Source of the DNA: Escherichia coli | GTDB taxonomy: Bacteria > Pseudomonadota > Gammaproteobacteria > Enterobacterales > Enterobacteriaceae | NCBI RefSeq assembly: GCF_024298765.1 | Contig: NZ_CP101221.1 | Direction: 5' to 3' (one strand) | Length of the DNA stretch: 1,551 nucleotides | Part shown: positions 1 to 1,551 of the stretch, piece after piece | How positions within the stretch are numbered: position 1 is the stretch's first letter | Layout: each line of letters opens with the position of its first letter | The notes under the pieces: model-generated | The model's input: the letters and a program-made list of their open reading frames with translations, nothing else | What the model was told of the DNA's origin: nothing | Database searches by the model: none | Program-made: the position numbers and the translations under genes

Positions 1-477
1 ATGTTTATTGATTCAGAAAAACGACTGAAACAACTTTCAGATGAGGCAAAGAAAAACACCGAGGATCTCGAAGAAGCAAAGAAGAATTCAAGGTTTACAC
101 AGGTATCCCCAAAAGGTTGGGAACGCGTTCGAGAGCTGCTGAAGGATAGTCAAGGCATATCAGCACTGAAGCTGTACTCATTTTTAGCGGAGCATATCGA
201 TCCTACGTGTGGCGCTGTCGTTGCGGATCAGCAATTCCTAGCTGAAAAACTTGGAGTTAGCAGAAGCACAATTATTCGGTGGCTCAATTACTTAGAATCA
301 AAAAATGCATTAGTTAGAATCCCCGTTGCTGGTAAGGTTTGTGCGTATGCCCTCGATCCACATGAAGTCTGGAAGGGATACAACACTACGAAAAACCATG
401 CAGCGTTTGTCACTAAAACACTGGTCAACAAAGACGGTGATATTCAGCGCCGAATCATGGCCATGTTTTCAAATTGA
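1..477 (+). CDS. repA: Plasmid replication initiator protein, small winged-helix Rep (pKL1 RepA-like / RepL-like), 158 aa
   Basis: Uninterrupted ORF ATG(1-3) to TGA(475-477), the only long ORF with protein-like composition. It has a charged, Lys/Glu-rich N-terminus and a clear helix-turn-helix segment (DQQFLAEKLGVSRSTIIRWLNYLESKNALVR). Size (~18 kDa) and organisation match single-gene small enterobacterial plasmids. No HUH or catalytic-Tyr motifs typical of rolling-circle Reps are evident. If the molecule is circular, an in-frame stop lies at 1510-1512 and a GAGGG Shine-Dalgarno at 1539-1543, about 8 nt before the ATG. Family assignment is from memory, not from a search. Confidence 0.85.
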   Translation: MFIDSEKRLKQLSDEAKKNTEDLEEAKKNSRFTQVSPKGWERVRELLKDSQGISALKLYSFLAEHIDPTCGAVVADQQFLAEKLGVSRSTIIRWLNYLESKNALVRIPVAGKVCAYALDPHEVWKGYNTTKNHAAFVTKTLVNKDGDIQRRIMAMFSN

Positions 478-510
478 GCCAGCGGCAGGCGGACAATCAG
501 GGGCTACGTG

Positions 511-539
511 TTAACGTTTTGACCATGATTGTCTATCCT
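511..539 (+). promoter_or_regulatory. Candidate promoter TTAACG-17 bp-TATCCT directed into the GC-rich block (alternative -35 TTGACC at 519-524)
   Basis: Sigma70-like hexamers about 35 bp downstream of the repA stop. Orientation matches what a ColE1-like primer or other plus-strand ncRNA running toward the pas-like site would need. Both hexamers are imperfect and no transcript is demonstrated. Confidence 0.2.
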
Positions 540-647
540 GCATTGCTCTTTTGCCGCCTCAAAATCCCTTGCTTGTTTTTGCTCCCCGATCCCCAGAACG
601 ACCGCGCCGCCACGGTTCCGGCAGCGCCTTGAGCGCAACCGGAAACC

Positions 648-667
648 GTCTGGGGAGAACCCCAGAC
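648..667. other. GC-rich hairpin GTCTGGGG-agaa-CCCCAGAC (8-bp stem, 4-nt loop) within the GC-rich noncoding block
   Basis: Perfect complementarity of 648-655 with 660-667, directly seen. Further hairpin-forming segments nearby: ACGGTTCCGG (611-620) with CCGGAAACCGT (639-649), and ATGCCC-tgac-GGGCAT (845-860). Confidence 0.7.
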
Positions 668-971
668 CCCCATCGCTGTAACACCGACGGTCTACGACCA
701 CCAACCAGCCGAATAGCTGCCTGTGCCGTGCAAATAGGCTTTGCAGGGGGCTGACGCGGTTCCTAGCGACCTGAAAGCCCCTGGTTAGGGGTATCGGCGC
801 GCCTGACCTCCTGAGAGCCTCTGTAAGCGTTTTTCGCGCCTTCCATGCCCTGACGGGCATTTAAAACCCGTTTCGTGTGTCTGAGAGCTTCTGAGCGCGT
901 TTGAGGGGCTATCTGGCGACTCATCCCCGAAAGAACAACAACGGAATCACCGACAACATGCGAGAGGTGAC

Positions 972-1032
972 ACCGCTCGCCGCAGCCCCAGCGACCGAAC
1001 GTAGTGAGCGAGTGGGCGAGGAAGCGGAAGAG
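972..1032 (-). other. ColE1-type primosome assembly / single-strand initiation (n' site)-like segment
   Basis: The minus strand reads CTCTTCCGCTTCCTCGC...TCGGTCG...GCTGCGGCGAGCGGT. This matches the pBR322/pUC segment CTCTTCCGCTTCCTCGCTCACTGACTCGCTGCGCTCGGTCGTTCGGCTGCGGCGAGCGGT in blocks of 17/17 and 15/15, in the same orientation and order relative to the bom homolog as in pBR322. It contains the AAGCGG hexamer associated with factor Y (PriA) sites. Function here is inferred from homology. Confidence 0.45.
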
Positions 1033-1068
1033 AACCGGAAACCACATTGAGCACGTACGCACTGATGC

Positions 1069-1093
1069 GGGGTGTCGGGGCGAAGCCCTGACC
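1069..1093. repeat. Left copy of perfect 25-bp inverted repeat (GGGGTGTCGGGGCGAAGCCCTGACC)
   Basis: Exact reverse complement of 1298-1322. The two copies are separated by 204 bp (1094-1297), which includes the oriT nic-like segment. Confidence 0.95.
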
Positions 1094-1260
1094 AGACGGC
1101 AAACGGAATATCGTCGCGGGTGACGGTATTACATTTGCACATCCTGTCCCGATTTCTGAGGCGTTTTAGCGGTGAACGGACGGCAAAACCATGATGGAGC
1201 TGTTGAGCGTTGAGAGCGTGAAATCTGGCAAAAATCACGGCTGGCGAGGCTTGTAGCGGA

Positions 1261-1297
1261 ATAAGCCAGTATACACTCCGCTATCGCTACGTGACTG
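1261..1297 (-). other. ColE1/pMB1-type oriT (bom) nic region, orphan (no relaxase in window)
   Basis: The minus strand reads CAGTCACGTAGCGATAGCGGAGTGTATACTGGCTTA, which as I recall it is identical over about 36 nt to the pBR322 bom/nic region. The adjacent repeat copy 1298-1322 matches the pBR322 sequence just upstream (GGGTGTCGGGGCGCAGCCATGACC) with 2 mismatches. The ColE1 MbeA nick is reported within CTGG|CTTA, i.e. between plus-strand 1265 and 1266 here. Sequence and nick position are from memory. Confidence 0.6.
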
Positions 1298-1322
1298 GGT
1301 CAGGGCTTCGCCCCGACACCCC
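1298..1322. repeat. Right copy of perfect 25-bp inverted repeat (GGTCAGGGCTTCGCCCCGACACCCC)
   Basis: Exact reverse complement of 1069-1093, 25/25. Identity stops at both ends (1297 and 1323 do not pair with 1094 and 1068). Confidence 0.95.
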
Positions 1323-1324
1323 AA

Positions 1325-1353
1325 AAGGGCGTTGCGTTGCGCGCAACACCCTT
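1325..1353. repeat. GC-rich palindromic hairpin (core GTTGCGCGCAAC 1336-1347, outer arms AAGGG/CCCTT)
   Basis: Perfect 12-bp palindrome with flanking complementary pentamers, directly seen. It sits between the oriT-like segment and the AT-rich tract. The GTTGC/GCAAC motif recurs at 1331-1335, 1469-1473 and 1479-1483. Confidence 0.8.
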
Positions 1354-1360
1354 GCCTAGA

Positions 1361-1416
1361 ATAGATCTTTTACGCCGATTTGTAAGTTGTTGTTTTTTTA
1401 GTGTGTTTTTTGTTTA
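1361..1416. other. AT/T-rich tract (T7 and T6 runs); candidate DNA-unwinding element of the replication origin
   Basis: gatcttttacgccgatttgtaagttgttgtttttttagtgtgttttttgtttacc is markedly AT-rich compared with the GC-rich flanks and lies next to the repeated and palindromic elements upstream of repA. Confidence 0.3.
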
Positions 1417-1443
1417 CCTGTCGCATCCAGGGTGACACAACGT

Positions 1444-1464
1444 TGTCGCATCCTGGATGCGACA
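1444..1464. promoter_or_regulatory. 21-bp palindrome TGTCGCATCC-t-GGATGCGACA, with a third copy of the arm at 1419-1428; candidate RepA operator or origin binding site
   Basis: Perfect 10-bp arms around a single central base. The same 10-mer TGTCGCATCC recurs as a direct repeat 25 bp upstream (1419-1428). A further small inverted repeat GCAACA-agg-TGTTGC lies at 1469-1483, overlapping the candidate -35. Upstream location fits autoregulation by an HTH Rep, but binding is inferred. Confidence 0.45.
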
Positions 1465-1479
1465 ACACGCAACAAGGTG

Positions 1480-1508
1480 TTGCACAGATGTGTCATGATG
1501 GCTTAGAT
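1480..1508 (+). promoter_or_regulatory. Candidate repA promoter (-35 TTGCAC 1480-1485, 17-bp spacer, -10 TTAGAT 1503-1508)
   Basis: Sigma70-like hexamers with 17-bp spacing, about 40 bp upstream of the presumed repA start and overlapping palindromic elements. Both hexamers are imperfect (3/6 and 4/6), so this is a weak call. Confidence 0.3.
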
Positions 1509-1536
1509 TTGAACCAACGTTAGTGCATGGGATTTT

Positions 1537-1551
1537 CAGAGGGAAAAAATC
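1537..1551 (+). promoter_or_regulatory. Ribosome-binding site for repA across the presumed circular junction (cAGAGGGaaaaaatc then ATG at 1)
   Basis: Purine-rich GAGGG at 1539-1543 followed by an 8-nt A-rich spacer to the window end; the ATG at position 1 would follow immediately on a circle. Confidence 0.5.

Follow-up and report, generated by a model that had tools for sequence, protein, structure and literature searches.

A pKL1-family mini-plasmid of Escherichia coli: a minimal replicon and an exchangeable non-coding cassette with predicted transfer-origin mimics

The DNA analysed here is a stretch of 1,551 nucleotides from Escherichia coli (contig NZ_CP101221.1 of assembly GCF_024298765.1), referred to below as the window. 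It represents one complete circular copy (positions 1-1551) of a mini-plasmid of the pKL1 family, opened at the start codon of its replication gene, repA. Many complete circular 1551-bp records in PLSDB matched the window at 100% over its full length (megablast); their hosts are E. coli, Shigella and Klebsiella, and some are numbered from elsewhere or given on the opposite strand. At least 80% of the window was covered in 330 PLSDB records, and the same threshold was reached in 292 (about 5%) of the 5426 complete E. coli genomes; almost without exception the sequence forms a plasmid of ~1.5 kb. A 35-nt probe spanning the junction between positions 1551 and 1 was contiguous in 24 fetched loci, including pKL1, whose record is numbered differently, and metagenome contigs. 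In one metagenome contig (L060), tandem units recur at a spacing of 1552 bp. It is apparent from the full-length circular records and the contiguous junction that the window is the whole plasmid. A preliminary description, made from the sequence alone, had considered it a single-gene miniature plasmid and not a fragment of a larger locus, and this is borne out. Junction-spanning sequence and a RepA related to plasmid Rep proteins were the two points on which that proposal had been staked, and both were found: the plasmid-database comparison that it recommended for the sequence and the protein gave full-length PLSDB matches, and RepA is a known plasmid Rep.

The preliminary description had also cited pKL1 as a plasmid of about 1.55 kb with a RepA of about 18 kDa, and had supposed that the window belongs to a described family. 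The reference to pKL1 was accurate: pKL1, from E. coli KL4 (Burian et al. 1997, 1999, 2003), is a natural plasmid of 1549 bp (PMC12839544) that has been termed a selfish one-gene plasmid (PMC3526173), pKL1-type plasmids are known, and sequences identical to the window have been deposited. After rotation, the window and pKL1 (NC_002145.1) are 94.2% identical at the nucleotide level, and they are alike in size, gene content, gene order and replicon type, with the same 158-amino-acid (aa) RepA. Three synonymous differences were observed in the 477 nt of repA and approximately five substitutions in positions 1326-1551, the origin/operator region being otherwise alike, while the remaining ~80 changes sit in positions 480-1325, where the non-coding cassette described below diverges by ~8-10%. 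In PLSDB, window-like records are typed as replicon Col(MG828) and labelled 'mobilizable'. The plasmid itself, a complete and already sequenced member of a family described since 1997, is therefore an ordinary one, and the value added here lies in a map of its non-coding DNA, with a swappable cassette, allelic slots for origins of transfer (oriTs) and a delimited core of 455 bp.

Some of the deposited records are unusual. An E. coli record of 32,327 bp (NZ_AP045792.1) has nine places that match the window, and contig L021 shows unit spacings of 1433 and 1548 bp, with different family members mixed. Where a record or contig contains several units, in tandem or mixed, the probable cause is multimerization or the joining of units at the shared cassette during assembly. 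Staphylococcus aureus RN6390 and Corynebacterium renale are named as the hosts of deposited plasmids that belong to the family (L015, which is NZ_CP090002.1, and NC_004833.1), and three 'Escherichia phages' of 1.4-1.9 kb (OX638291.1, OR844749.1 and OR844798.1) are members of the family as well. These odd-host and phage records suggest contamination by, or carry-over of, the mini-plasmid into other preparations, or its packaging in phage particles.

The gene repA (1-477, + strand) encodes a 158-aa winged-helix replication initiator, recognized from its open reading frame (ORF), a match to Pfam HTH_36 and its identity to the RepA of pKL1 (WP_000469298.1, the accession that also appears in the identical 1551-bp record). 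It is the sole ORF of the window with a Pfam match (HTH_36, E=1.5e-8; weakly RepL, E=0.0027). The AlphaFold model of RepA has a mean predicted local distance difference test score (pLDDT) of 64 and is confident only at residues ~40-120, which form the winged helix. The nearest PDB folds found with Foldseek were generic winged-helix repressors only (the C-terminal domain of CodY and ArsR-type repressors, E ~2e-3); no nuclease fold was seen in the model or among these nearest folds, and a sequence comparison of RepA with the PDB gave nothing significant. Homologues of RepA fall into 690 clusters, nearly all of them on contigs of 1-4 kb. Autoregulation and hexamerization are known for the identical pKL1 protein from the work of Burian (1999, 2003), as cited in PMC3832669, and the RepA of the window is presumed, by virtue of this identity, to bind DNA, to regulate its own synthesis and to form hexamers in the same way.

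The initiation region of repA is as the preliminary description had read it. The window starts at the repA ATG (1-3), and on the circle a Shine-Dalgarno-like GAGGG (1539-1543, + strand) precedes it, the two being separated by the last 8 nt of the window (AAAAAATC). The reading frame of the ATG is closed upstream by a TGA at 1510-1512, 42 nt or 14 codons away, with no in-frame ATG, GTG or TTG between them. Two terminator-like sites were rejected: they lie inside repA, on the wrong strand, and are at chance level.

Upstream of repA lies a Rep-specific control and origin module (1326-1551, + strand), which is exchanged together with the rep gene and which, with positions 1-477, makes up the replication module; homology with plasmids of other Rep types ends at ~1323-1325. 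At the boundary with the cassette is a GC-rich palindrome or hairpin, GGGCGTTGCG-TTGCG-CGCAACACCC (1327-1351, unstranded), found by sequence reading and inverted k-mers. It is followed by an AT-rich stretch (1370-1418, unstranded), a candidate unwinding region read from the sequence and the motif scan. The same scan gave a site on the minus strand with one mismatch to the consensus of integration host factor (IHF; 1383-1395), and only one-mismatch matches to DnaA boxes. Tandem palindromic RepA-type sites (1419-1464, unstranded) were identified by a repeat search and the motif scan, with TGTCGCATCC at 1419 and 1444 on the + strand and at 1455-1464 on the minus strand. The first palindrome (1419-1437) is degenerate and the second (1444-1464 or, more widely, 1442-1466) is perfect; in the 2810-bp plasmid L018 (CP122658.1), with a Rep 92% identical to RepA, both are perfect. 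Plasmids with other Rep types have their own, unrelated tandem palindromes at the same position, 60-110 bp upstream of the start codon. The Rep sites thus travel with the rep gene, which fits a role as operator or origin, and the TGTCGCATCC palindromes are presumed to be the operator and origin binding sites of RepA.

The region upstream of repA, with its IHF-like site, TGTCGCATCC sites and perfect inverted repeat, corresponds to the pKL1 origin of vegetative replication (oriV) as outlined in PMC3832669 (citing Burian 2003), which is located upstream of rep and includes Rep-binding sites as well as a box for IHF. The minimal replicon would consist of repA and ~225 bp upstream of it. RepA, a small winged helix without an enzymatic domain, would bind the tandem palindromes beside the AT-rich, IHF-bent stretch, and this binding would both repress its own promoter and open the origin for the host replication machinery. 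A ColE1-type replicon was considered and rejected, as no RNAI or RNAII was found by Rfam; the 'Col' of Col(MG828) is a typing name only. The sole Rfam match in the window at E <=1 was a chance match of a miRNA on the operator palindrome. RNAI was likewise not detected in 18 contigs bearing the conserved core described below (Rfam, gathering scores), and these are therefore not ColE1 replicons.

The preliminary description had placed the interest of the plasmid in its non-coding two-thirds. This was well judged, for that part consists of an exchangeable cassette of transfer-origin mimics and a conserved core. The cassette (850 bp, 476-1325, unstranded) is swapped as a unit among mini-plasmids of differing Rep. 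It is 99.8% identical in the 1433-bp plasmid pIsolateI_F (NZ_CP135464.1), the 143-aa Rep of which is ~28% identical over just 54 aa, and 88-94% identical in plasmids of 1506, 1459 and 1822 bp that have other Reps. The homology extends from directly behind the rep stop codon to positions 1323-1325, and the G+C content of the cassette is 58-64%, versus 42-46% for repA. When metagenomes were scanned with a 20-mer taken from the cassette, 77 contigs were obtained.

The cassette encodes no protein. None of its ORFs has a Pfam match, close relatives differ in it by single-nucleotide indels, and three minus-strand ORFs (118, 99 and 105 aa) were rejected as genes on both counts and because their frames are split. 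The annotation pipeline PGAP has called two minus-strand proteins in cassettes, a 194-aa 'rep protein' (WP_173002421.1 in NZ_CP043413.1; window 559-1143) and a 73-aa hypothetical protein (WP_158414302.1 in p4-H9; window 921-1142). Both are probably spurious calls; the 194-aa ORF is split over three frames in the window. No convincing XerC/XerD core of a cer-type multimer-resolution site was seen on reading the sequence, no formal scan for one having been made.

In PLSDB, Col(MG828) covers at least three Rep proteins (the 158-aa RepA, a 143/146-aa Rep and a 177-aa RepL-like Rep; L014-L018), and the plasmids of different Rep so labelled have little DNA in common beyond the cassette. The typing probe is thus probably situated in the cassette, and the label probably tracks the cassette and not the replicon, a point of relevance to plasmid epidemiology.

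Three oriT mimics were identified in the cassette, and the counterpart of each in its source family sits at the canonical place beside a relaxase operon. The first, of IncX4/R6K type (491-545, + strand), has hairpin arms at 492-502 and 523-533 and the nick-region core TATCCTG at 534-540. The nick is presumably to be expected between 540 and 541 on the + strand, by analogy with IncP-type nick regions. The segment is 87% identical to positions 5612-5666 of the IncX4 plasmid pCFSAN126948_03, directly upstream of ddp1/taxC, and it also matches, again at 87%, an inverted second copy in that plasmid (12840-12900). Both hallmarks of an IncX (R6K-type) oriT are intact, namely a long hairpin and, after it, TATCCTG followed by CATTG. 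Alleles of this slot show covariation between the distal stem and the apical palindrome, which reads GTTAAC, GCATGC or GGTACC, and they differ in neither the proximal stem nor the nick region.

Two observations concern the surroundings of the IncX-type nick. In L043 (~169-260) and L088 (minus strand, ~1393), the 8 nt located 3′ of the predicted nick (CATTGCTC) are repeated in tandem two to four times directly after ATCCTG, which could have arisen by simple slippage or mark a place where a relaxase nicked and rejoined the strand. The 1506-bp plasmid L014 (CP134917.1) has a 49-bp insertion after window position 573 containing TGCAGGATAG, which is the IncX-type nick core in reverse complement. 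It thereby has two inverted nick cores, an arrangement that recalls pBuzz and the R6K oriTs, which are typically duplicated (bioRxiv 10.1101/2024.01.30.577996).

The second mimic is of IncI-complex (R64) type (1068-1155, + strand), with a head hairpin at 1069-1093, inverted-repeat arms at 1099-1110 and 1127-1138, and the nick region ACATCCTG followed by TCCCG at 1139-1151 (+ strand; full form ACATCCTGTCCCG), in which the nick is predicted between 1146 and 1147. It is 91% identical to the oriT of the IncI1 plasmid pKHSB1, situated immediately upstream of nikA-nikB at a distance of 13 nt. The features expected of this type are present, including the nick region CACATCCTG followed by TCCCG, the repeat beside the nick with one nucleotide different, and a distal GC hairpin; the roles of these elements in R64-type oriTs (a NikA-binding repeat and its inverted partner) are taken here in part from PMC4743918 and in part as presumed. 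Metagenome contigs revealed eight nick-proximal arm alleles in this slot, each with a complementary partner (9-12 of 12 positions), while the nick region was invariant. The window has an IncI1-like allele. That of pKL1, by comparison, is of the type found in IncK1/pCT-like plasmids of the IncI complex (arms GTAATCGTAT/ATACGATTAC) and is 92.5% identical to the IncK1/I-gamma plasmid pCT; another allele is up to 100% identical to IncK2/Z plasmids. The matches in pCT and in the IncK2/Z plasmids lie 16 nt from a relaxase-accessory gene, in the same position beside the relaxase operon. This allelic series of oriT hairpins constitutes a ready natural experiment on relaxosome specificity.

The third mimic corresponds to the bom/nic region, or oriT, of ColE1 (1262-1325, minus strand; head hairpin 1298-1322). 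Positions 1262-1321 are 98% identical to ColE1 1462-1521, and the site in the window is 100% identical to that of pEcoUTI1c (60-64 nt). In ColE1-like plasmids the bom homologue is found ~90 bp from rop, upstream of the mob genes. The sequence diagnostic of the ColE1 bom/oriT, GGGTGTCGGGGCG.AGCCCTGACCCAGTCACGTAGCGATAGCGGAGTGTATACTGGCTTA, is present in the window, and the nick of this mimic is predicted to fall within 1262-1276 on the minus strand. The head hairpin repeats that of the IncI type (1069-1093) perfectly over 25 nt and in inverse orientation, so that the IncI-type and ColE1-type sites converge on each other.

Between the IncX-type and IncI-type mimics lies the conserved core (455 bp, 606-1062, + strand), a putative region of single-strand initiation or priming. 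It was partly or mostly matched in all 77 of the metagenome contigs mentioned above, and its homology boundaries recur at 606/611 and 1060-1062 across diverse contigs in which the oriTs are absent. Its identity is 81-100% in 31 representative sequences. The core occurs with at least six small winged-helix or RepL-like Rep types, sometimes with NikA-like genes and once with a Rep_1 rolling-circle Rep, and parts of it are common to IncX4, IncX1 and a 29.8-kb plasmid with type IV secretion system (T4SS) genes. A search of a phage collection with the core gave only mislabelled mini-plasmids and vector-like matches to the primosome assembly site (pas) described below.

Four hairpins were recognized in the core, all on the + strand. 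Hairpins A (616-621/639-644, inner stem 624-627/633-636) and B (648-655/660-667) fold together as single-stranded DNA (ssDNA) at -21.7 kcal/mol (616-667; z=-4.6 versus shuffles), and they vary only in ways that preserve the structure, by a compensatory CG to TA change, an inversion of the inner stem (L018 and L093) and a flip of the loop (L025). A unit of ~190 bp (672-862, + strand) contains hairpin C (778-782/787-791), for which L019 and L025 have a different complementary pair, and ends in hairpin D (845-850/855-860). The latter has other stem sequences in the 29.8-kb T4SS plasmid, and in its IncX4 and IncX1 copies it contains G.T wobbles that pair only on the + strand. A Frpo-like single-strand promoter at 672-812 was considered and discarded, since folding there is no better than that of shuffles on either strand. 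The 29.8-kb plasmid (L013, NZ_LR890201.1) has T4SS genes and no recognized relaxase, and it contains three direct copies (97-99% alike) of the homologue of 672-862 (7516-7711, 21512-21717 and 22368-22573), two of which flank ccdAB.

Near its end, the core includes a homologue of the ColE1 primosome assembly site, ssiA or n′-pas (+ strand), with presumed boundaries at 958-1040. Positions 972-1032 are 84% identical to ColE1 1308-1367, ~100-160 nt downstream of the ColE1 ori motif. The homologue is 89% identical to that of another ColE1-like plasmid and is also found in IncX4 and in the 29.8-kb T4SS plasmid. In ColE1, PriA is recruited to ssiA/n′-pas, a site exposed a short distance downstream of ori (PMC3167613).

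Taken together, these data make it probable that the plasmid consists of two modules, a minimal winged-helix replicon and an 850-bp hitch-hiking cassette of oriT mimics with a priming core. The invariant nick regions, the compensatory changes in the hairpin arms and the alleles that match particular helpers argue for working oriTs that have been retuned to different helpers, rather than for decaying relics. Relaxases supplied in trans could nick the mimics (TaxC of IncX plasmids, NikB with NikA of the IncI complex and MbeA of ColE1 type from a co-resident Mob+ plasmid), and the nicked plasmid would then leave through the conjugation channel of the helper. Transfer from the IncX-type and IncI-type sites would involve the + strand, and transfer from the ColE1-type site the minus strand. 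These assignments rest on the inverted repeat, which in IncP-type nick regions is found on the nicked strand, to the 5′ side of the nick. The core would prime the complementary or lagging strand on single-stranded + DNA, both in vegetative replication and after entry into a recipient. We give slightly less than an even chance to its being a single-strand initiation region that acts on the + strand, which is the analogue of the lagging-strand template of ColE1 and would also be the one transferred from two of the oriTs. A more tentative proposal is that the core is an undescribed cis element dependent on host or helper (a single-strand origin or priming platform, or a structured RNA), and that the core and the swappable oriT slots are together the selected cargo of the family. 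The non-coding two-thirds of the plasmid appears to be a portable transfer-origin kit for common helpers (IncI/K/Z, IncX and ColE1 Mob) combined with priming signals, and such a kit, if real, would account for the occurrence of the plasmid across E. coli, Shigella and Klebsiella.

Several points weigh against this interpretation. The ColE1-type site would be usable only with two helpers. The IncI-type arms of the window are complementary at 10 of 12 positions, which makes this the least perfect of the alleles, and the site is only ~91% identical to IncI1. PLSDB/MOB-suite labels some near-identical cassettes 'non-mobilizable', and the searchable literature yielded no mobilization or nicking data for the plasmid, nor any link between pKL1 and oriTs. 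As for the core, the ssDNA folding of the pas segment is weak (z=-1.4 on the + strand and 0.65 on the minus strand), that of most of the remainder (668-812) is not unusual (z about 0), and the high conservation could partly reflect recent spread rather than selection. A simple scan of the window gave no sigma-70 consensus promoter for repA.

Four other explanations were weighed. That the window is not autonomous but part of a larger replicon (a fragment, or one unit of a repeat), or else an artefact of assembly or contamination, is extremely improbable. The 32-kb E. coli record with its nine matching places, the two to four tandem units in some metagenome contigs and the implausible hosts (Staphylococcus aureus and Corynebacterium) and 'phages' noted above are what such an artefact might leave, but a small circle also yields tandem units, through assemblers and plasmid multimers. 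Circles of 1546-1553 bp are present in hundreds of independent complete assemblies, and pKL1 has been isolated and studied as a physical plasmid of 1549 bp (PMC12839544, PMC3526173). It is very unlikely, too, that the cassette is inert debris, a functionless relic of recombination with ColE1-like, IncI and IncX plasmids. The plasmid is certainly a mosaic of segments common to many plasmids, some carriers of the cassette are labelled non-mobilizable by MOB-suite, and the decayed (74%) colinear copy in an IncX1 plasmid, with its damaged nick core ACATTCTG, shows that such segments can decay. Nevertheless, the nick regions have remained invariant while the flanking hairpin arms changed repeatedly and in a compensatory manner, and in existing helper lineages the alleles have matches of up to 100% identity. 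The cassette has, moreover, been kept at 88-99.8% identity across replicons with ~28%-identical Rep genes, and 850 bp of useless DNA should vanish fast from a high-copy plasmid of 1.5 kb.

The other two explanations bear on the core. It, or part of it, might be a gene, either for a structured non-coding RNA on the + strand (~672-862, ending at hairpin D) or for the minus-strand 'rep protein' called by PGAP. This we consider unlikely. The 190-bp unit does have discrete ends, stands upstream of genes three times in the T4SS plasmid, and closes with a GC hairpin followed by TTT, and its G.T wobbles fit the + strand only; yet such wobbles suit ssDNA equally well as RNA, the run of T residues after hairpin D is just 3 nt, no promoter-like site was found, and no Rfam family matched at E <=1 apart from the chance miRNA. 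The protein option, for which the PGAP calls of 194 aa (NZ_CP043413.1) and 73 aa (p4-H9) might be adduced, is contradicted by an ORF that lies in three frames, by 1-nt indels in close relatives and by the lack of a Pfam match. Rolling-circle or strand-displacement replication, as proposed for the Firmicute RepL/pSN2 plasmids, is a rather unlikely alternative, in which the core would be the single-strand origin (sso) of that replication and not primarily an aid to conjugation. The core resembles an sso in several respects: it is non-coding, rich in hairpins and strand-specific, occurs irrespective of Rep type and passes between replicons. One contig has it beside a Rep_1 rolling-circle Rep. RepA itself has weak similarity to RepL in Pfam (E=0.0027), and other core-associated Reps exceed the RepL gathering score. 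Against this, RepA is a winged helix only, lacking the HUH/Tyr nuclease domain, so that its fold does not place the plasmid among rolling-circle plasmids; a nick-site-like double-strand origin was not identified, and the pKL1 oriV, in the account cited in PMC3832669, is of the iteron/IHF type with a hexameric RepA.

The probable lifestyle of the plasmid, that of a hitch-hiker without a relaxase, is of an already established kind. Only repA was found in the window, the other ORFs having no Pfam match (no relaxase, coupling protein or mating-pair genes), three sites have the sequence features of oriTs, and the PLSDB/MOB-suite label is 'mobilizable'. The general concept of such pOriT plasmids is established (PMC10123127), and I-complex oriTs have been acquired by pBuzz and pCERC7, neither of which has a relaxase (PMC11389934, PMC9282650). 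pBuzz, a cryptic E. coli plasmid of 1982 bp that is mobilized by a B/O plasmid (Moran & Hall 2019) and is compared here by its description, is like the window in being tiny and relaxase-less, with more than one I-complex-derived oriT and two oriTs oppositely oriented. It differs in that it is a rolling-circle plasmid with two related, inverted oriTs, whereas the window has a winged-helix RepA, three oriT families and the core. The pCERC7/NTP16 group of NikA plasmids (Moran & Hall 2017), again likened by description, are small and have acquired an R64-like oriT. The window encodes no NikA and would need that of the helper; some metagenome relatives of the cassette core do encode NikA-like proteins.

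The ColE1-type plasmid pEC156 has F-type and R64-type oriTs and no mob genes. Its orphan 93-bp R64-type oriT is 84% identical to that of R64 and suffices for mobilization by R64drd11 (PMC4743918); the copy in the window is ~91% identical to IncI1. Unlike the window, pEC156 has RNAI/RNAII replication, a cer site and a restriction-modification system. ColE1/pMB1 and the window share a pas homologue (972-1032) followed by bom (1262-1321), in the same order and orientation and at identities of 84% and 98%, whereas the RNAII/RNAI origin, rop and the mob genes of ColE1/pMB1 have no counterpart in the window. The pas-bom spacing is 230 bp in the window, as opposed to 95 bp in ColE1, because the IncI-type oriT lies between the two.

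The decayed copy referred to above is found in a 46-kb IncX1 plasmid (L010, CP082748.1), in which positions 2190-2798 are colinear with window 541-1149 at ~74% identity and include the IncI-type oriT with the damaged nick core. It has the appearance of either a pKL1-type cassette integrated long ago or the ancestor from which part of that cassette was derived. The plasmid L018, with its 92%-identical RepA, has the cassette from position 594 on, together with genes for a colicin-M-like lipid II-degrading bacteriocin and a YebF-family protein, from which it is apparent that the minimal replicon is able to acquire cargo. Lastly, the RepA operator palindrome TTGTCGCATCCTGGATGCGACAA (1440-1455) contains ATCCTG and resembles the oriT nick regions TTTGCACATCCTG and TTGTCTATCCTG (1131-1146 and 529-542), a resemblance that may be due to chance or to an evolutionary link between the Rep site and the nick regions of the oriTs.

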